DNA of 41,742 nt, taken from the IMG/VR virus record IMGVR_UViG_2541047836_000006. One strand, 5' to 3'. The notes below the pieces were generated by a model, which was not told where the DNA came from, made no database searches, and saw only the letters and a program-made list of their open reading frames with translations. The position numbers and the translations under genes are program-made. Position 1 is the stretch's first letter. Every line of letters begins with the position of its first letter. Shown piece after piece: positions 12,835 to 20,011 of the stretch. The stretch comes from a virus. Lineage: Duplodnaviria > Heunggongvirae > Uroviricota > Caudoviricetes.

Positions 12835-13021
12835 CCCATCTCAATCCCTTCAATACCTGAAAGGAAGCATAGAGCGGGCTTCAATGTGCACAGAGTGGAT
12901 TCTATCTAGGTTTAGCGCATACAGAAGATTGCCGGTAAAGGGCATGCCAAGCAAGTCGATGCTGCATATGCAAAAGAATGCGCGCGGGAAGGTATGGCGA
13001 GAACGCAGGTTATCTGGCTGA
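12827..13021 (+). CDS. NinF-like N-terminus fused to divergent sequence (possible mosaic or frameshifted remnant)
   Basis: First ~20 aa [21 protein letters not shown] resemble lambda Nin[22 protein letters not shown], then diverge; a different frame (12916-13044) encodes …[28 protein letters not shown], resembling a DLP12 YbcO-family C-terminus. Confidence 0.35.
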
Positions 13022-13040
13022 AAGAGGGGGTAATTAAGGC

Positions 13041-13403
13041 GTGAATACTTACCACATCACACTACCCTGGCCTCCGAGCAATAATCGCTATTATCGCCAT
13101 AATCGCGGGCGCACGCACGTCAGCGCAGAGGGGCAGGCATACCGCGATAACGTCGCCCGAATCATTAAAAACGCAATGCTGGATATCGGCCTGGCGATGC
13201 CTGTGAAAATCCGCATTGAGTGCCACATGCCGGATCGCCGTCGCCGTGACCTGGATAATCTGCAAAAAGCCGCTTTTGACGCACTCACCAAAGCAGGTTT
13301 CTGGCTGGATGATGCTCAGGTCGTTGATTACCGCGTTGTGAAGATGCCTGTTACCAAAGGTGGGAGGCTGGAATTGACCATCACCGAAATGGGGAATGAA
13401 TGA
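13041..13403 (+). CDS. rusA: RusA Holliday-junction resolvase
   Basis: 120-aa protein [50 protein letters not shown]… near-identical to remembered DLP12 RusA; GTG start. Confidence 0.95.
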
Positions 13404-13540
13404 TGTTTGAGTTTTATATGGCAGAACGTCTTCGCCACCGCTGGGTGCGTCTGCGCTTATATCGTTTCCCCGGTTCTGTTTTGACCGATTACCGAATACT
13501 GAAGAATTACGCCAAAACACTGACAGGAGCAGGAGTATGA
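13400..13540 (+). CDS. ylcG: Small protein YlcG-like
   Basis: 46-aa [49 protein letters not shown] overlapping the rusA stop; matches remembered DLP12 ylcG; below the ORF-track cutoff. Confidence 0.7.
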
Positions 13541-13625
13541 AGTCAGAGATAACAATCAACTAATACTGTTTTGCTGATTTTTGCTTGTAATTGGCGTTCT
13601 GGTCTGATTTTTGTGGAGTAAGTTG

Positions 13626-14003
13626 ATGCGTGATATTCAGATGGTTCTTGAGCGTTGGGGAGCGTGGGCGGCTAATAATCATGAAGATGTGACCTGGTCG
13701 TCCATTGCCGCCGGTTTTAAGGGATTAATTCCTTCAAAAGTAAAATCTCGCCCGCAATGTTGTGACGATGACGCGATGATCATTTGCGGGTGCATGGCCC
13801 GTCTGAAAAATAACAACAGCGATTTGCATGATTTGTTAGTGGACTATTATGTCGGCGGCATGACTTTTATGGCGCTTGCGCGTAAGCATGGTAGATCTGA
13901 TTGTTGGATTGGCAGGATGCTCCAAAAAGCTGAGGGCGTAGTGGAGGGCATGCTGATGGTGTTGGATCTCAGATTGGAGATGGATGCTGATTGTTTGAGA
14001 TAA
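13626..14003 (+). CDS. Q: Late-gene antiterminator Q (QuuD/phage-21-type)
   Basis: 125-aa product from ATG at 13626 (SD GGAGTAAG); [33 protein letters not shown]… with Cys-rich zinc motif ([14 protein letters not shown]); matches remembered DLP12 QuuD. Confidence 0.85.
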
Positions 14004-14102
14004 TTAAAGGAAAAGTTGCTGTCTGGTTATCATTAGACTAATGTTTCAAATGTTAGAATCGCAACGTAGTTATGATCATATAACAGCTTGTTCCCTGATT
14101 TA

Positions 14103-14131
14103 GCCAGCCTCCCCAAAGGCTGGTTTTTTTT
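14103..14131 (+). terminator. Rho-independent terminator downstream of Q (tR'-like)
   Basis: Hairpin CCAGCC-tccccaaa-GGCTGG followed by TTTTTTTT (14124-14131). Confidence 0.65.
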
Positions 14132-14159
14132 CTAATAAGTATCAATCCGGTTAGGTATT

Positions 14160-14684
14160 TTATTGTTTGACCCATAATAGTTCATTGACATTGAATCCCA
14201 ATTTTTGAGCAGTACGCACATAGTCTGCTTTTACATTATCTGGAATAGTTGGAGTCCGTGCCAGAATCCATAGGTATTCTCTGTTCGGACCACTGACAAG
14301 AGCATACTTATACTCATCATCCAGTTTGATTACATTATAGCCACCATAGAAGGGGCCAAAAAACGAAACCTTCAACGCTGCAGTTGTATTATCTCCTGTA
14401 AAGTATGCTTTACCTTCGCTCTCGCTCCATTTGTTTTTCGTTGGGTCATATCCACGATTAAGTACACTAATCCCTCCGTCGTTCCGTTTCCCATAAGTGG
14501 CGCTGACCTGTTCCAGACCACGTTCAAATCGGTTCTCAAGCCGAGCTATTTCATACCATTTTCCGAGGTAGCGGTTGGTGTCAAAATTTGTAATCGGCTG
14601 CACACCTTTAGGTGGTGTCGGGGCCTTACATGCTATCAGAGTGAAAGAGAGTGCAATGCCAGTCAACACAGGCCATAACTTCAT
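14160..14684 (-). CDS. Blc-like bacterial lipocalin, outer-membrane lipoprotein (moron)
   Basis: 174-aa ORF; signal peptide with lipobox LIAC (MKLWPVLTGIALSFTLIACKAP); lipocalin-like motif GKWYEIARLENRFERG; AT-rich; opposite strand to flanking late genes. Confidence 0.8.
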   Translation of the reverse strand: MKLWPVLTGIALSFTLIACKAPTPPKGVQPITNFDTNRYLGKWYEIARLENRFERGLEQVSATYGKRNDGGISVLNRGYDPTKNKWSESEGKAYFTGDNTTAALKVSFFGPFYGGYNVIKLDDEYKYALVSGPNREYLWILARTPTIPDNVKADYVRTAQKLGFNVNELLWVKQ

Positions 14685-14876
14685 AATATATCCTGTACTT
14701 TTGATAGTTGAGAGTAAGTATTAAAGATAGATGATTACTACCGATCACCTAAAGAACTTTCCTACTATATTAGGAATAGTCCATAACAAAAAAATTGTCA
14801 GTGATGACGGCAGAAAGGCAGTTTAGGTCGTGTACTACACTGTTAACCTGTTAATGAATTAGTCAAGGGGTAGGCA

Positions 14877-15836
14877 ATGATAAAAAAACCTGTCGTTGGG
14901 ATCAGTGGTTGTTTGGCCGGTTCTTCTGTCCGTTTTGATGGTGGTCACAAAAGAGCTAGCTTTTTAATGGACAAATTACTGGAATGGGTAACATTCAAAC
15001 CAGTATGTCCGGAAATGGCTATAGGGCTTCCAGTTCCGCGTCCTGCTCTACGTCTTGTTCGCTCGGCGCAAGGAAATATACGGATGTGTTTCAGCCACGA
15101 CCAGAATGAGGATGTTACAGAGAAAATGACAGAGTTTAGTCGTTCTTATCTTGACAAATTAAAGGATGTATCGGGATTTGTGGTTTGTGCAAAATCTCCT
15201 AGCTGTGGTATGGAACGCGTGCGTGTATATGATGAAAATGGTAATCGTGGTCGTAAAGATGGAGTGGGACTATTTACGAGCACGTTGATGGAAAGGTTTT
15301 CCTGGCTACCGGTTGAAGAGGATGGGCGACTACATGATCCAGTGCTTCGTGAAAACTTTGTTGAAAGAGTATTTGCTTTACATGAGCTCAATCATCTTTA
15401 TAAAGCGAAATTATCAAGAAGGGAATTATTAGCTTTTCATAGCCGTTATAAGCTTCAGTTGTTGGCGCATAGCCAGGCCGGTTATAAAGAGATGGGGCCA
15501 TTTGTGGCTGCAATACATGAGTGGGCAGACCTTGAATCATACTTTGAGGTGTATCGTGAGAAGCTGATGGCGATTCTCAGAAAACCTGCATCACGTAAAA
15601 ATCACACGAATGTGCTGATGCATATACAGGGATATTTTAGTAACTGCTTAAATACACGTCAGCGTAAAGAGTTGAGCGATGTTATACTTAACTATCGAGC
15701 TGGCACGCTACCTCTTCTTGCGCCATTAACTTTGCTGAAGCATTACTTGGCAGAGTATCCTGATGATTATTTGCTTATACAGAATTACTTCCACCCCTAT
15801 CCTGATGAACTGGCTCTAAGACTCTTGGTGAACTAG
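14877..15836 (+). CDS. DUF523(TudS-like)-DUF1722 fusion protein, putative thiouridine desulfidase-like Fe-S enzyme (moron)
   Basis: 319-aa ORF with SD; N-terminal Cys-rich region (GISGCLAG, VCPEMA, CAKSPSCGMERV) resembling DUF523; C-terminal helical half resembling DUF1722/YbgA; family assignment from memory, not searched. Confidence 0.65.
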   Translation: MIKKPVVGISGCLAGSSVRFDGGHKRASFLMDKLLEWVTFKPVCPEMAIGLPVPRPALRLVRSAQGNIRMCFSHDQNEDVTEKMTEFSRSYLDKLKDVSGFVVCAKSPSCGMERVRVYDENGNRGRKDGVGLFTSTLMERFSWLPVEEDGRLHDPVLRENFVERVFALHELNHLYKAKLSRRELLAFHSRYKLQLLAHSQAGYKEMGPFVAAIHEWADLESYFEVYREKLMAILRKPASRKNHTNVLMHIQGYFSNCLNTRQRKELSDVILNYRAGTLPLLAPLTLLKHYLAEYPDDYLLIQNYFHPYPDELALRLLVN

Positions 15837-16154
15837 GCGTTTGGAATGCACCAACAAGATGATTTTCTCCTTAGAGAATGTTTACAATCGTAAAAACTTC
15901 ACTATGATATCTATAGTTGTACAGTTTGTAAAAAAATTCGGTTCATGCTTAAGGTAATGTTAATATGTTAATTAATGATTAATAATCAAGCAAGCCAAAA
16001 ATAGTTCTGTTTAATCTAGTATTACATAAATATTTTAAAGAAAATATCAAAGTTCATGATGATATAATGAGATTTTTCTCATTGAAAATATGGCAATTTT
16101 AATATTTCCACCTATACTTACTTAACTCAAATCTAATTATGTCAGGTGGATGGT

Positions 16155-16886
16155 ATGCCATGCATATGTTCTATCATTTTGGTTTTGAACTCGTTTGATA
16201 TCCGGCTTGGTAAAGAAAAAATCTCTCTAAAAAAAGGAAGTGTTGTTGCTATAGAATACAATTTAAAAGTTTTCTTTTCTTCAAATAAAGATAATATAAT
16301 GATCGTGGATATTGAAGAGAAAACAGTTAATGACTTCTTTAAAAACAATACACTCTCACCTTTTTCTGTAAGAAGATTTTATTCAGCATACTTGATAGTA
16401 AACTGTACAGACTATTCATTGTTAAAGAACTTGATAGGTTGCTTGAATTGTGATGGTGAAACTACGGCTGTAGTTAAAAATTCAATATTATTTGCATGTC
16501 TTGCTATTTTATCCTCGGAAAAAATGTTTCAGAGTTTTTTGTTTGGGTGTCTTAATAGTTTAGGAAGCAAAGTTAAGGCTATTATTCACTCGGACATATC
16601 TGCAGCATGGAGACTTTGTGATATTTCTTCAAGACTATGTCTGAGTGAAAGTTTGTTAAAAAGAAAACTAAAACACGAAGGCTTATCATTTAGCAAATTA
16701 ATTCTTGAAGAACGAATGGTGATGGCTGAAAGGTTATTAAGCTACAATTTCTATCCTGTTGGGAAAGTTGCTAAAATATGTGGTTATGAAAGCGCGTCAT
16801 ATTTTATAAGTGTTTTCAGAAGATATTTTGGTGTTCCCCCCCATGAATATTCATCAAGATTTTTTTTAGAAAAAGGCAAGATGTAA
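16155..16886 (+). CDS. AraC-family transcriptional regulator (AppY/EnvY-like), AT-rich moron
   Basis: C-terminal AraC HTH signature (…KVAKICGYESASYFISVFRRYFGVPPHEY); ATG at 16155 preceded by AGGTGG (track ORF begins at GTG 16146); preceded by ~300 bp of very AT-rich DNA. Confidence 0.8.
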   Translation: MPCICSIILVLNSFDIRLGKEKISLKKGSVVAIEYNLKVFFSSNKDNIMIVDIEEKTVNDFFKNNTLSPFSVRRFYSAYLIVNCTDYSLLKNLIGCLNCDGETTAVVKNSILFACLAILSSEKMFQSFLFGCLNSLGSKVKAIIHSDISAAWRLCDISSRLCLSESLLKRKLKHEGLSFSKLILEERMVMAERLLSYNFYPVGKVAKICGYESASYFISVFRRYFGVPPHEYSSRFFLEKGKM

Positions 16887-17053
16887 CGTGATGCGTTTTG
16901 ATGATTTTGTAATTTTCATATTTGATGATTATATGATGCTTTCAGCTACGCCAGAATAATCGCTGGCGTTTTTCTTTTCTAATGTAACTTCTGTATCTTT
17001 CCCTCTTTCATTCCAAACCGTGTACACCATCCGTTATTCGCGGAGGTGAGGCT

Positions 17054-17269
17054 ATGAAATCCATGGACAAGTTAACAACGGGCATTGCCTACGGCACCTC
17101 TGCAGGCAGTGCTGGCTACTGGTTTTTACAGTGGCTTGATCAGGTCAGTCCGTCACAGTGGGCGGCGATTGGAGTGCTTGGAAGCCTTGTGTTGGGTTTT
17201 CTCACTTATCTGACAAACCTTTATTTCAAGATTAAAGAAGATAAGCGTAAGGCTGCGAGAGGTGAATAA
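17054..17269 (+). CDS. S: Holin, class II pinholin (S21-type) with dual-start motif
   Basis: 71-aa protein [71 protein letters not shown] matches phage 21 S; two Met starts (codons 1 and 4) for antiholin/holin; SD GGAGGTGAGG. Confidence 0.9.
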
Positions 17270-17766
17270 TGTCGCCATCATTACGCAAGGCTGTAGCAGC
17301 TGCTATTGGTGGTGGGGCTGTTGCCATAGCGTCTGTGCTCATCACTGGTCCGAGTGGTGACGATGGTCTGGAAGGTGTCAGCTACATACCATATAAAGAT
17401 ATTGTTGGTGTATGGACTGTATGTCACGGGCATACAGGAAAAGACATCATGCTCGGTAAAACGTATACCAAAGCAGAATGCAAAGCACTCTTGAATAAAG
17501 ACCTTGCCACTGTCGCCAGACAAATTAACCCGTACATCAAAGTCGATATACCGGAAACAACGCGCGGCGCTCTTTACTCATTCGTTTACAACGTGGGTGC
17601 TGGCAATTTCAGAACATCGACGCTTCTTCGCAAAATAAACCAGGGCGATATCAAAGGCGCATGTGATCAGTTACGTCGCTGGACATATGCTGGCGGTAAG
17701 CAATGGAAAGGTCTCATGACTCGTCGTGAGATTGAGCGTGAAATCTGTTTGTGGGGTCAGCAATGA
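17269..17766 (+). CDS. R: SAR endolysin (R21-type lysozyme with N-terminal signal-anchor-release domain)
   Basis: 165-aa protein with hydrophobic Gly/Ala-rich N-terminus ([20 protein letters not shown]) then lysozyme domain; ATG overlaps S stop. Confidence 0.9.
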
Positions 17767-18224
17767 ACAGAGTAACCGCGATTATCTCCGCTCTGGTTAT
17801 CTGCATCATCGTCTGCCTGTCATGGGCTGTTAATCATTACCGTGATAACGCCATTACCTACAAAGCCCAGCGCGACAAAAATGCCAGAGAACTGAAGCTG
17901 GCGAACGCGGCAATTACTGACATGCAGATGCGTCAGCGTGATGTTGCTGCGCTCGATGCAAAATACACGAAGGAGTTAGCTGATGCGAAAGCTGAAAATG
18001 ATGCTCTGCGTGATGATGTTGCCGCTGGTCGTCGTCGGTTGCACATCAAAGCAGTCTGTCAGTCAGTGCGTGAAGCCACCACCGCCTCCGGCGTGGATAA
18101 TGCAGCCTCCCCCCGACTGGCAGACACCGCTGAACGGGATTATTTCACCCTCAGAGAGAGGCTGATCACGATGCAAAAACAACTGGAAGGAACCCAGAAG
18201 TATATTAATGAGCAGTGCAGATAG
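17763..18224 (+). CDS. Rz: Rz i-spanin
   Basis: 153-aa product from ATG at 17763; N-terminal TM then coiled-coil; matches lambda Rz. Confidence 0.9.
17983..18165 (+). CDS. Rz1: Rz1 o-spanin lipoprotein (embedded in Rz, +1 frame)
   Basis: 60-aa [27 protein letters not shown]… with lipobox VVGC and proline-rich region; entirely inside Rz. Confidence 0.85.
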
Positions 18225-18227
18225 AGC

Positions 18228-18245
18228 TGCCCATATCGATGGGCA
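18228..18245. terminator. Palindromic hairpin between convergent Rz and bor (likely bidirectional terminator)
   Basis: Perfect inverted repeat TGCCCAT-atcg-ATGGGCA, 4 nt after the Rz stop and 10 nt after the bor stop. Confidence 0.55.
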
Positions 18246-18255
18246 ACTCATGCAA

Positions 18256-18549
18256 TTATTGTGAGCAATAGACACGCGCTTCCAGCGGAGTATAAATGCC
18301 TAAAGTAATAAAACCGAGCAATCCATTTACGAATGTTTGCTGGGTTTCTGTTTTAACAACATTTTCTGCGCCGCCACAAATTTTGGCTGCATCAACAGTT
18401 TTCTCCTGTCCAATTCCCGAAACGAAGAAGTGATGGGTGATGGTTTCCTTTGGTGTTACTGCTGTCGGTTTGTTTCCAACAGTAAACGTCTGTTGAGCAC
18501 ATCCTGTAATAAGCATTGCCAGAGCGGCAGAAAACAACATTTTTTTCAT
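18256..18549 (-). CDS. bor: Bor lipoprotein (serum-resistance, Iss-like lysogenic-conversion protein)
   Basis: 97-aa product from ATG at 18547-18549: MKKMLFSAALAMLITGCAQQTFTVGNKPTAVTPKETITHHFFVSGIGQ… matches lambda Bor; lipobox ITGC. Confidence 0.9.
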   Translation of the reverse strand: MKKMLFSAALAMLITGCAQQTFTVGNKPTAVTPKETITHHFFVSGIGQEKTVDAAKICGGAENVVKTETQQTFVNGLLGFITLGIYTPLEARVYCSQ

Positions 18550-18908
18550 CTTATTATCCTGCATTGTTAAAAACGGCAGAATCCTATGTGACAACAATTA
18601 AACGATAGTTAAATGGATTGATGAAAATTAAAACTATATAGGTGGATGCTCAGCCTATTGGAGGAGGGGGGCACTCAGAATCCTGTGGAATGAAATAAAC
18701 CGCTCTTTCTGTCCATTACCCTTTTAGCTGCGCTGTATCGTCGCCGTATTCCCGCATTAACCATGACCGTAGCCCGACGGGGAATTCCTTCTGCGTGAGT
18801 GTGCGGGAATAATCAAAAACGATGCACACCGGGTTTTACTGTGCTGACAGACGCAGGGTTACCCTCATAGTCGCTTTTCCGGTGCGATGGTGGAAGAAAC
18901 CGGGATGT

Positions 18909-19103
18909 TTATTCATCATCACTTTGGATTGATGTACATGCTCTCTTTTCTGACGTTAGTCTCCGACGGCAGGCTTCAATGACCCAGGCTGAGAAATTCC
19001 CAGACCCTTTTTGCTCAAGAGCGATGTTAATTTGTTCAATCATTTGGTTAGGAAAGCGGATGTTGCGGGTTGTTGTTCTGCGGGTTCTGTTCTTAGTTGA
19101 CAT
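18909..19103 (-). CDS. ylcI: YlcI-like small protein (DUF3950-type)
   Basis: 64-aa ORF MSTKNRTRRTTTRNIRFPNQMIEQINIALEQKGSGNFSAWVIEACRRRL… matches remembered DLP12 YlcI; located between bor and cos. Confidence 0.6.
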   Translation of the reverse strand: MSTKNRTRRTTTRNIRFPNQMIEQINIALEQKGSGNFSAWVIEACRRRLTSEKRACTSIQSDDE

Positions 19104-19302
19104 GAGGTTGCCCCGTATTCAGTGTCGCTGATTTGTATTGTCTGAAGTTGTTTTTACGTTAAGTTGATGCAGATCAATTAATACGATACCTGCGTCATAA
19201 TTGATTATTTGACGTGGTTTGATGGCGTAGATGCACGTTGTGACATGTAGATGATAATTATTATCATTTTGTGGGTCCTTTCCGGCGATCCGACAGGTTA
19301 CG

Positions 19303-19314
19303 GGGCGGCGACCT
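19303..19314 (+). other. cos: cosN: 12-nt lambda cohesive-end sequence GGGCGGCGACCT within an intact cos region (about 19230-19490)
   Basis: …CGACAGGTTACG|GGGCGGCGACCTCGCGGGTTTTCGCTATTTATGAAAATTTTCCGG… matches the lambda right-end/left-end junction, with cosB-like sequence before Nu1. Confidence 0.85.
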
Positions 19315-19491
19315 CGCGGGTTTTCGCTATTTATGAAAATTTTCCGGTTTAAGGTGTTTCCGTTCTTCTTCGTCGTAACTTAATGTATTTATTTAAAATA
19401 CCCCCTGAAAAGAAAGGAAACGACAGGTGCTGAAAGCGAGCTTTTTGGCCTCTGTCGTTTCCTTTCTCTGTTTTTGTCCGTGGAATGAGCA

Positions 19492-20011
19492 ATGGAAGTC
19501 AACAAAAAGCAGCTGGCTGACATTTTCGGTGCGAGTATCCGTACCATTCAGAACTGGCAGGAACAGGGAATGCCCGTTCTGCGAGGCGGTGGCAAGGGTA
19601 ATGAGGTGCTTTATGACTCTGCCGCCGTCATAAAATGGTATGCCGAAAGGGATTCTGAAATTGAGAACGAAAAGCTGCGCCGGGAGGTTGAAGAACTGCG
19701 GCAGGCCAGCGAGGCAGATCTCCAGCCAGGAACTATTGAGTACGAACGCCATCGACTTACGCGTGCGCAGGCCGACGCACAGGAACTGAAGAATGCCAGA
19801 GACTCCGCTGAAGTGGTGGAAACCGCATTCTGTACTTTCGTGTTGTCGCGGATCGCAGGTGAAATTGCCAGTATTCTCGACGGGCTCCCCCTGTCGGTGC
19901 AGCGGCGTTTTCCGGAACTGGAAAACCGACATGTTGATTTCCTGAAACGGGATATCATCAAAGCCATGAACAAAGCAGCCGCGCTGGATGAACTGATACC
20001 GGGGTTGCTGA

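Follow-up and report, generated by a model that had tools for sequence, protein, structure and literature searches.

Cargo genes between Q and the holin gene

The analysed window, 41,742 nucleotides of the virus record IMGVR_UViG_2541047836_000006, carries three passenger genes at positions 14160-16886, blc, rudS and an araC-family gene, which are confirmed to lie between the antiterminator gene Q and an S21-type holin gene of a lambda-like E. coli phage. An earlier note made from the sequence had placed three open reading frames at this position between Q and the lysis genes. The left border is the late antiterminator Q (13626..14003, plus strand, 125 aa from ATG; Pfam Phage_antitermQ, 2.5e-51); in phage 1H12, too, this gene is labelled a Q-like antiterminator. 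The right border is the S21-type (P21-type) class II holin S (17054..17269, plus strand; Phage_holin_2_1, 3e-35), followed by a SAR endolysin (17269-17766; Phage_lysozyme, 1.3e-45), and homology to essD of DLP12 starts again at the ribosome-binding site of the holin gene. The cassette is 100% identical in Lambda_2E9, ev110 and other sequenced temperate coliphages and 99.9% identical to that of phage 1H12. No tRNA genes were found in the whole window, and a search against Rfam across 13000-19500, including the rudS-araC spacer, gave nothing near a gathering score.

The first gene, blc, encodes an outer-membrane lipocalin lipoprotein of 174 aa on the minus strand (14160..14684) with the lipobox LIAC and the motif GKWYEIARLENRF. 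The assignment as a Blc-like lipocalin, proposed in the earlier note, is borne out by the match to Pfam Lipocalin_2 (PF08212, 2.2e-43), by a score above the cut-off of the NCBIfam family 'outer membrane lipoprotein Blc' (NF007786, 315.5 bits, cut-off 267), and by 64% identity over 155 aligned residues to the crystallised E. coli Blc (PDB 3mbt, 2.6e-69). The signal peptide and lipobox read MKLWPVLTGIALSFTLIAC followed by KAP, so that the +2 residue is Lys and not Asp, and the predicted localisation agrees with the outer-membrane sorting rule. The phage protein represents an additional paralogue, carried by phages, of the chromosomal Blc of E. coli (PDB 1QWD, 2ACO, 3MBT), with which it shares the lipobox and the Lipocalin_2 fold. 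Its similarity to this Blc is lower than that to the Blc proteins linked to rudS in Kosakonia, Enterobacter and Buttiauxella (79-81%). E. coli Blc binds lysophospholipids or fatty acids, and by analogy the phage protein may bind them in the outer membrane. As a moron, blc was found in more than 50% of the lambda phages surveyed by Mathieu et al. 2020 (PMC6969025).

The second gene, rudS (14877..15836, plus strand, 319 aa), encodes a tRNA 4-thiouridine (s4U) desulfidase in which an N-terminal TudS-like domain (2-thiour_desulf/DUF523, PF04463, 3.6e-40, residues 7-149) is fused in one chain to a C-terminal DUF1722 domain (PF08349, 1.3e-40, residues 192-309). In the comparison with the TudS structure 6z92 (8.9e-05), C12, C44 and C110 align with the [4Fe-4S] ligands C10, C43 and C104, E46 with E45, and S107/S109 with the Ser-x-Ser residues S101/S103. 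The same Cys positions are tabulated for RudS_vir (Table 1 of PMC11417400), where a catalytic role is described for the Glu and Ser residues. DUF1722 is the tRNA-binding domain, and RudS is a [4Fe-4S] desulfidase that turns s4U in tRNA back to U. The phage protein is 100% identical to RudS_vir, which is H3V29_gp66 of Escherichia phage 1H12 and likewise lies between blc and araC. Overexpression of RudS_vir in E. coli BL21(DE3) lowered tRNA s4U (Jamontas et al., Nucleic Acids Res 2024, PMC11417400), although its activity, observed in this overexpression setting only, was below that expected from the protein level. This agrees with the desulfidase function that had been guessed from the domain architecture. 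The description of the protein as Cys-rich did not hold, as it contains merely six Cys residues (1.9%), three of them being Fe-S ligands.

The third gene (16155..16886, plus strand) encodes an AraC/XylS-family regulator of 243 aa from the PatE/AppY/YdeO/GadX group. Translation most probably begins at the ATG of position 16155 rather than at the GTG of 16146, because the database proteins P0001-P0005 and that of 1H12 are 243 aa long and a Shine-Dalgarno sequence, AGGTGG, lies 5 nt upstream. The C-terminal double helix-turn-helix was matched by HTH_18 (2.9e-15) and HTH_AraC (1.7e-12) and by the DNA-binding domain of GadX (3mkl, 5.4e-21; TM 0.91 for the predicted structure). Full-length matches of the model, which is of moderate confidence (pLDDT 74.5), were obtained with Foldseek for CsvR, Rns and ToxT (E-value 1e-12). 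A fatty-acid pocket, in which the invariant R74 would be the counterpart of R75, the decanoate ligand of Rns, was considered but is not claimed. Among the relatives compared, the closest was ECs_0287 of the Sakai prophage Sp1 (53% identity over 235 residues), presumably PatE/Z0321 given its position in Sp1/OI-8. This identification is based on the position together with a review. The identity to AppY was 30% over 235 residues. The AppY-like assignment in the earlier note was thus right about the group, but the protein is nearer to ECs_0287 than to AppY. The profiles of YdeO (residues 1-235, 2.1e-32, 112.7 bits, cut-off 348) and GadX (3.2e-28, 98.7, cut-off 500) matched far under their cut-offs, as did every other NCBIfam equivalog, so that no named orthologue was found. 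The regulator forms a separate lineage restricted to E. coli prophages. With PatE and AppY it shares architecture, length, a prophage location and AT-richness. It is no orthologue of the characterised members PatE (OI-8/Sp1), PsrA/PsrB and AppY (DLP12), as far as the identities, which cover ECs_0287 and AppY, indicate, and in contrast to them it occupies the Q-S slot instead of a prophage end.

Base composition and transcription signals

The GC content is 0.436 in blc, 0.427 in rudS, 0.267 in the spacer 15837..16154 upstream of araC and 0.313 in araC, compared to 0.507 for the whole window. The extreme AT-richness described for the spacer in the earlier note was therefore recovered, while its description of the cargo as AT-rich applies strongly to the araC part but only moderately to blc and rudS. 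The step from 0.43 to 0.31 is located between blc-rudS and araC. The spacer is a likely H-NS target given its composition, and in araC alleles without blc-rudS its conservation is restricted to the 3' part.

A candidate late promoter pR' (TTGCTG-17-TAATGT, 14016..14044, plus strand) was read from the sequence, and this stretch is kept in phage IdasGreatGrand. It is followed by a candidate tR' (14102..14133, plus strand), an intrinsic terminator with a 9-bp stem and T8 (-14.2 kcal/mol, z = -3.0). On the minus strand it has no U-tract and is therefore a poor terminator for blc. A further intrinsic terminator (16948..16979, plus strand, -11.3 kcal/mol, z = -2.8), also kept in IdasGreatGrand, marks the end of the cargo 5' of the holin gene, and the cargo is thus bracketed by two terminators.

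The promoter scan gave 12 sites compared to 12.0 expected from shuffled sequence, and these counts were discarded as evidence. Since they are meaningless alone, conservation across alleles was used as support, and the promoters reported here are candidates, consensus matches backed solely by this conservation. The candidate araC promoter (ATGGCA-17-TATACT, 16090..16118, plus strand) is of this kind: a TGGCAA-like -35 element, an invariant TATACT and the Shine-Dalgarno sequence are common to five araC alleles with 54-100% protein identity, two of which come without blc-rudS.

The Q-S slot as a site of accessory genes

Instead of this cargo, Q and S border a porin gene in DLP12 and some 100 related phages; two related prophage contigs (L080 and L081) have only an araC homologue in the slot. 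Morons are recognised, following Hendrix and Juhala, by extra or differently filled DNA between neighbouring genes, a distinct base composition, a promoter and terminator of their own, and expression from the repressed prophage that benefits the host. Here, the slot is filled differently among related phages, the GC content is 0.27-0.44 in the cargo against 0.507 in the window, a terminator lies 3' of araC, and conserved promoter-like elements, which are candidates, lie 5' of araC and rudS. For expression and benefit in the repressed prophage, the purifying selection on the three genes is the sole and indirect indication. These comparisons agree with the placement as a moron in the earlier note, and the genes are accessory rather than the conserved core genes that would have spoken against it. 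The insertion point, with the order pR'/tR', cargo and S, is identical to that of stx in Stx phages and of the nmpC/ompD porin gene in DLP12 and its relatives. The gene content differs from these, and blc runs against the direction of late transcription. A role in anti-phage defence was rejected, as none of the three cargo proteins matched PADLOC.

The three-gene cassette is mostly known, ordinary lysogenic-conversion cargo. The finding of the earlier note is real yet largely described already: the cassette is present in published phage genomes, and the desulfidase claim was put to the test in 2024.

Origin of the blc-rudS pair

In the divergent intergenic region between blc and rudS, an inverted-repeat search identified a dyad (14759..14776) with the halves TTCCTACTA and TATTAGGAA and a TATATT -10-like hexamer. 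The pattern TTCNTASTATATTRRGA, which describes a 17-nt element, occurs once in the window compared to 0.01 expected occurrences, a test that is partly circular because the pattern was derived from the phage and chromosomal sequences together. In the chromosomal loci, the element lies just 5' of the merR start and aligns with the phage copy. The dyad is probably a promoter or operator element inherited from chromosomal loci in which blc is divergent from merR-rudS.

Such loci, with an MlrA-like merR followed by rudS, are found in Kosakonia, Buttiauxella, Lelliottia and one Enterobacter MAG. A Kluyvera chromosome has the divergent blc-rudS arrangement of the phage without a regulator, flanked by yejH and yejK. 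Elsewhere, rudS lies downstream of amine oxidase, DUF1365, CFA synthase and DUF3833 genes, or is flanked by ECF sigma/ChrR and photolyase genes. Neighbours such as photolyase and CFA synthase genes place rudS of other bacteria in clusters for the response to light and photo-oxidative stress.

The phage blc-rudS pair therefore appears to be a fragment of an Enterobacteriaceae chromosomal blc/merR/rudS module that lost merR and kept the 17-nt element. A merR remnant in the blc-rudS spacer was rejected, as tblastn and short blastn searches gave only this element. The MerR-linked rudS loci, which include Salmonella STM1389/ORF319, Enterobacter cloacae and phrB-litR-rudS of Pseudomonas putida, encode the same enzyme family; phage RudS is 68-76% identical to chromosomal RudS of Enterobacterales, and the Kosakonia and Buttiauxella loci also share the divergent blc neighbour and the upstream element. 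The phage copy differs from them in the missing MerR-type regulator gene, in its much lower GC3, and in being embedded in the late transcription unit of the phage, with an AraC regulator as neighbour. No donor of the cargo was found or can be assigned, because the best RudS outside E. coli is only 76% identical and the GC3 values do not match (0.37 in the phage compared to 0.57-0.81 in chromosomal rudS).

Distribution, selection and decay

The cargo was found in 1151 of 5426 complete E. coli genomes, about one in five, in DLP12-like and Qin-like prophages, where one Q allele travels with it. It is complete, defined as a megablast match covering at least 80% of the query, with all three genes in 668 genomes. 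Purifying selection acts on each of the three genes: between alleles with a DNA divergence of about 10%, dN/dS was 0.08-0.13 for blc, 0.11-0.14 for rudS and 0.25 for araC, compared to 0.08-0.11 for Q. Protein identity between alleles is 83% for araC and 92-97% for blc and rudS.

Decayed copies are common and include IS insertions, frameshifted araC and shortened rudS. IS1 lies within blc in H31, rudS of BL21 is cut by IS3, and IS1 adjoins or substitutes for araC in some copies. A 'two-gene variant' consisting of blc-rudS without araC, suggested by matches covering 61-66% of the query, was rejected after three were inspected: two retain a diverged (75%-type) araC overlooked by megablast, and one lost araC to IS1.

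Discussion

The explanation we consider highly probable is that a functional lambdoid coliphage acquired two modules independently and carries them in its Q-S slot as a composite moron cassette. The first would be the divergent blc-rudS, an effector pair out of the chromosomal blc/MerR/rudS module. The second would be araC, which is AT-rich, has a conserved candidate promoter of its own and a terminator before the holin gene, and is presumably silenced by H-NS. The independence of the araC module, which shares in the high probability of the whole explanation, is suggested by homologues with 62% and 54% identity that stand alone between the holin gene and Q genes of other families. The AraC protein would probably target host acid-stress genes such as gadE/hdeA, by analogy to PatE, PsrB and AppY; these targets are deduced only from homologues of 30-53% identity.

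In lambda-type late transcription, plus-strand genes in the Q-S slot are automatically co-expressed with the late genes. Since rudS and araC have the orientation of the late operon and lie 3' of the candidate tR', Q-modified RNA polymerase would have to transcribe both, and after induction their transcription would reach a high level, as for stx. As blc is antisense to the late transcript, it can be expressed from its own promoter only. The LitR regulators of Pseudomonas are dark-state repressors according to the RudS paper (PMC11417400). If the MerR-type regulator was such a repressor, the loss of merR would uncouple blc and rudS expression from light.

This leads to a more speculative and rather doubtful proposal, namely that the phage captured light-stress effectors minus their light-sensing MerR-type repressor and that lysogens of E. 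coli, which natively lacks RudS, gain a light-independent erasure of the tRNA photosensor s4U, tuned for late translation of the phage. If true, s4U erasure, together with Blc, would be boosted upon induction, UVA growth delay and stringent response would be blunted exactly when UV induces the prophage, and about one fifth of E. coli strains would differ from K-12 in near-UV physiology through a prophage.

UV is a classic prophage inducer, and near-UV crosslinks s4U8 to C13 in tRNA, which stalls translation. The cargo, or at least rudS, could therefore chiefly serve the phage in lytic growth as an auxiliary gene and not in lysogenic conversion, with RudS from the Q-antiterminated transcript erasing s4U and sustaining late-protein translation in irradiated cells. 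We regard this as somewhat unlikely. It is in line with the co-orientation of rudS and araC with the late operon in the tR'-S interval, which late transcription must cross, with the absence from the phage of the MerR-type regulator by which the ancestral module senses light, and with the shortened UVA growth delay upon overexpression of RudS_KT in E. coli (PMC11417400). However, late expression precedes lysis by merely minutes and erasure of the standing tRNA pool is slow; the conserved promoter-like element 5' of rudS and the terminator before S suit expression in the prophage state; and cryptic DLP12-like and Qin-like prophages, which are lytically dead, keep an intact rudS under purifying selection. 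A use in lytic growth and the composite moron are compatible with each other.

That the three genes co-travel in DLP12-like, Qin-like and functional phages, and that the terminator scan found none between rudS and araC, would also fit a single unit in which the AraC protein has replaced MerR as the specific regulator of its neighbours blc and rudS. This is very unlikely, considering the lone araC homologues (54-62%) that occupy the Q-holin slot with the same promoter and Shine-Dalgarno sequence but without blc-rudS, the unlike GC content and allelic divergence of the two modules, and the fact that the characterised relatives PatE, PsrB and AppY act on host acid-resistance genes such as gadE/hdeA (PMC10877973, PMC10057817). 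Least probable, and in our view very improbable, is that the cassette is carried along as selectively neutral DNA in a slot that tolerates recombination, to the benefit of neither host nor phage. Frequent decay of all three genes and the unrelated porin cargo of sister phages in the same slot would be expected in this case, but the dN/dS values of 0.08-0.25, judged as low as those of the essential Q, the number of genomes with complete cargo and the enzymatic activity of RudS_vir (PMC11417400) argue against it.

For phage biology, the composite moron changes little, since the Q-S slot, the blc moron and RudS_vir were all known beforehand. Added here are the two-module composition, the carriage by about one fifth of E. 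coli and the purifying selection on the three genes. The published work on RudS_vir used an isolated, synthesised and overexpressed ORF and left aside where the gene lies in the phage, its partners blc and araC and the loss of MerR (PMC11417400). The linkage of blc to rudS, together with the MerR loss in the phage copy, offers a concrete, testable view of the way in which rudS is put to use. The cargo regulator is another widespread member of the PatE/Psr/AppY class, which is known for rewiring acid resistance and virulence. E. coli is stated to be without RudS (PMC11417400), while about one in five genomes carries the cargo. Therefore, the choice of strain matters for studies on s4U, UVA growth delay and stringent response, BL21 being a strain with an IS3-cut copy.

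Gene content and published counterparts

The three ORFs lie in the window exactly where the earlier note had placed them, with Q on their left and an S21-type holin gene and a phage lysozyme gene on their right. The blc gene (14160-14684, minus strand) encodes 174 aa with the lipobox LIAC, the GKWYEIARLENRF motif and a Lipocalin_2 domain (2.2e-43). NCBIfam places its product, above the cut-off, in the family 'outer membrane lipoprotein Blc', and an alignment of 155 residues with the E. coli Blc of known crystal structure gives 64% identity. The protein would be a lipid-binding lipoprotein of the outer membrane. The 319-aa ORF, rudS (14877-15836, plus strand), combines a 2-thiour_desulf/DUF523 domain (3.6e-40) with DUF1722 (1.3e-40). 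The fusion proposed from the sequence therefore holds, but its description as Cys-rich was overstated for 6 cysteines in 319 residues. The araC-family ORF (plus strand, 243 aa) ends at 16886. Its start codon is most probably the ATG at 16155, which lies 5 nt past AGGTGG and matches the start of the database proteins. The GC content is 0.436 for blc, 0.427 for rudS, 0.267 for the spacer at 15837-16154 and 0.313 for araC, compared to 0.507 for the window.

The cassette and its flanks are 100% identical in the temperate coliphages Lambda_2E9, 4B5, 2G7a, ev203, ev058 and ev110, and 99.9% identical in phage 1H12 (genus Jouyvirus); Lambda_ev110 and Lambda_2E9 match the window at 100% over its first 19.3 kb. 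Phages of the same collection were isolated by Mathieu et al. 2020 (PMC6969025), who reported blc as a moron carried by over half of their lambda phages. A gene for an outer-membrane lipoprotein, annotated as Bor-like in phage 1H12, lies just 3' of Rz/Rz1 (18256-18597, minus strand) and is a second known moron.

The most interesting proposal of the earlier note, that the 319-aa protein is a tRNA 4-thiouridine (s4U) desulfidase, is correct, yet it has been in print since 2024. The protein is 100% identical to H3V29_gp66 of phage 1H12 (RudS_vir), which was synthesised and overexpressed in E. coli, where it lowered tRNA 4-thiouridine (Jamontas et al. 2024, PMC11417400). In an alignment with TudS, the cluster ligands C12, C44 and C110 are present, as are E46 and S107/S109. 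Overall, the observation of the cargo is confirmed and its interpretation is supported. The novelty is low: phages with the exact sequence have been published, blc has already been described as a moron, and RudS function was tested on the same protein. The additions are modest: a two-module origin, a lost MerR regulator with a retained element, a prevalence of about 20% in E. coli and evidence of purifying selection.

Composite origin of the cargo

The cargo consists of two modules, the divergent pair blc and rudS and the araC gene. For the first module, the neighbourhoods of 72 chromosomal rudS loci were compared. Kluyvera species carry the divergent blc-rudS pair as in the phage, inserted between yejH and yejK, and in Kosakonia, Buttiauxella, Lelliottia and an Enterobacter MAG an MlrA-like merR gene (242 aa) stands between blc and rudS, in the orientation of rudS. 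The order in Serratia, Pectobacterium, Yersinia and Klebsiella is amine oxidase-DUF1365-CFA synthase-x-DUF3833-rudS, and in Shewanella and Vibrio it is ECF sigma-ChrR-rudS-photolyase-SnoaL-SDR. Such light and photo-oxidative stress contexts were also remarked on by Jamontas et al. (PMC11417400), whose paper does not mention the lipocalin.

No merR remnant was found in the phage blc-rudS spacer. This spacer contains a dyad, TTCCTACTA and TATTAGGAA (14759-14776), which surrounds a TATATT hexamer and whose pattern occurs once in the window against 0.01 occurrences expected. In the chromosomal loci, the dyad pattern lies directly upstream of merR. The prophage RudS lineage is distinct, with the next relatives 76% identical and a GC3 of 0.37 compared to 0.57-0.81.

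For the second module, araC homologues with 62% and 54% identity are the sole cargo between a Q of a different family and the holin gene, and they share a conserved promoter-like element (TGGCAA-17-TATACT) and a Shine-Dalgarno sequence with the araC allele of the window. Related prophages carry a gene for a TrkH/TrkG potassium transporter after their lysis cassette (L081, 8992-10416; L083, 7024-7806), a position that forms a further cargo slot adjoining the one between Q and S.

The AraC-family regulator

Homologues of the regulator were found only in E. coli sequences, with alleles at 100, 82, 75, 62 and 50-54% identity. Over its full length it is 53% identical to Sakai ECs_0287 of prophage Sp1, which is taken to be PatE (Z0321, OI-8) based on its position and a review. 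The label 'AppY-like' is appropriate at the family level, but PatE is the closer relative; AppY shares 30% identity. The likeness to YbcM is confined to the DNA-binding domain. The top NCBIfam profiles are YdeO (2.1e-32, full length) and then GadX, both far under their equivalog cut-offs. In structural comparisons, the predicted fold (pLDDT 74.5, moderate confidence) aligned along its entire length with CsvR, Rns and ToxT, and it resembled the DNA-binding domain of GadX with a TM score of 0.91. Based on homology, NCBIfam and structure-model matches, the regulator belongs to the PatE/Psr/AppY class of prophage proteins, as an uncharacterised representative.

In its N-terminal domain, R74 and Y79 are invariant in 14 homologues down to 35% identity. 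Rns and ToxT, the best structural matches, bind fatty acids via basic pocket residues, which are H20 and R75 in Rns according to PDB entry titles.

Transcription signals and proposed mechanism

A possible pR' (TTGCTG-17-TAATGT) can be read at 14016-14044, and a strong terminator on the plus strand (14102-14133), about 100 nt past Q, is the candidate tR'. A second terminator (16948-16979) closes the cargo 75 nt ahead of S, and the terminator scan found none between rudS and araC. In DLP12, as in about 100 phages, an nmpC/ompD porin gene occupies the same slot, and homology to DLP12 picks up again at the ribosome-binding site of essD. Just past the rudS stop (15881-15932), two promoter-like sites with 10/12 matches each face each other with overlapping -10 boxes (plus strand TTTACA-16-TATGAT, minus strand TTTACA-17-TATCAT). 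This stretch is kept in the 3 cassette alleles compared, and the minus-strand candidate would yield a transcript antisense into rudS.

In the proposed mechanism, blc and rudS would be transcribed from the divergent promoter region that they inherited. Since the MerR-type regulator is gone, their expression would not be under light control, assuming that it was a dark-state repressor like Pseudomonas LitR (PMC11417400). The araC gene may be silenced by H-NS, and its product may target stress genes of the host, like PatE, PsrB and AppY (PMC10877973, PMC10057817). The blc gene is antisense to the late transcript. Because rudS and araC share the orientation of the late operon, Q-modified polymerase would have to transcribe both after induction, and they would also be expressed together with the late genes.

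Such late expression would also fit a less likely rival reading in which RudS is a lytic helper. Local regulation of blc and rudS by the AraC protein is an unlikely alternative, and the homologues that stand alone in their slot speak against it. Neutral hitch-hiking of the cassette is a further unlikely reading. The dN/dS values between alleles, 0.08-0.13 for blc, 0.11-0.14 for rudS and 0.25 for araC with 0.08-0.11 for Q, point to purifying selection. Decayed copies also occur, with IS1 within blc, IS3 truncating rudS in BL21, IS1 beside or replacing araC, and frameshifted araC.

Prevalence and decay

A search of 5426 complete E. coli genomes matched the cargo in 1151, with at least 80% of it covered in 668 of these. 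Based on an evenly spaced sample of the cargo matches, full-length rudS is present in about 90% of the matching genomes, which puts the estimate near 1,000 genomes (about 19%). Carriers include functional phages and cryptic DLP12-like and Qin-like prophages. The statement that E. coli is without RudS (PMC11417400) is true of K-12 and untrue of the species as a whole.

The cassette region is a frequent IS target. Independent inactivations include a frameshifted araC in strain AMA1167 (L079, 6041-6771), replacement of araC by IS1 in the prophage locus L083 (4913-5610) and insertion of IS1 in blc in strain GN02270 (H31). In E. coli BL21 (NZ_CP060121.1), the cargo lies in a Qin-like prophage (L078, 5021-7077), where an IS3 element cuts rudS after about 49 codons and the downstream DNA is rearranged. 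The published overexpression of RudS proteins and the s4U measurements used BL21(DE3) (PMC11417400).

Two short contigs of the MAG 'Candidatus Nanosynbacter sp.' D148_maxbin.008 (L054, L073) carry the E. coli prophage cassette, with identities of 98% for Q, 97% for blc, 88-92% for rudS and 82% for araC, and an 'uncultured Clostridiales' UMGS1307 MAG contig (L006) carries an enterobacterial-type rudS; these contigs look mis-binned.
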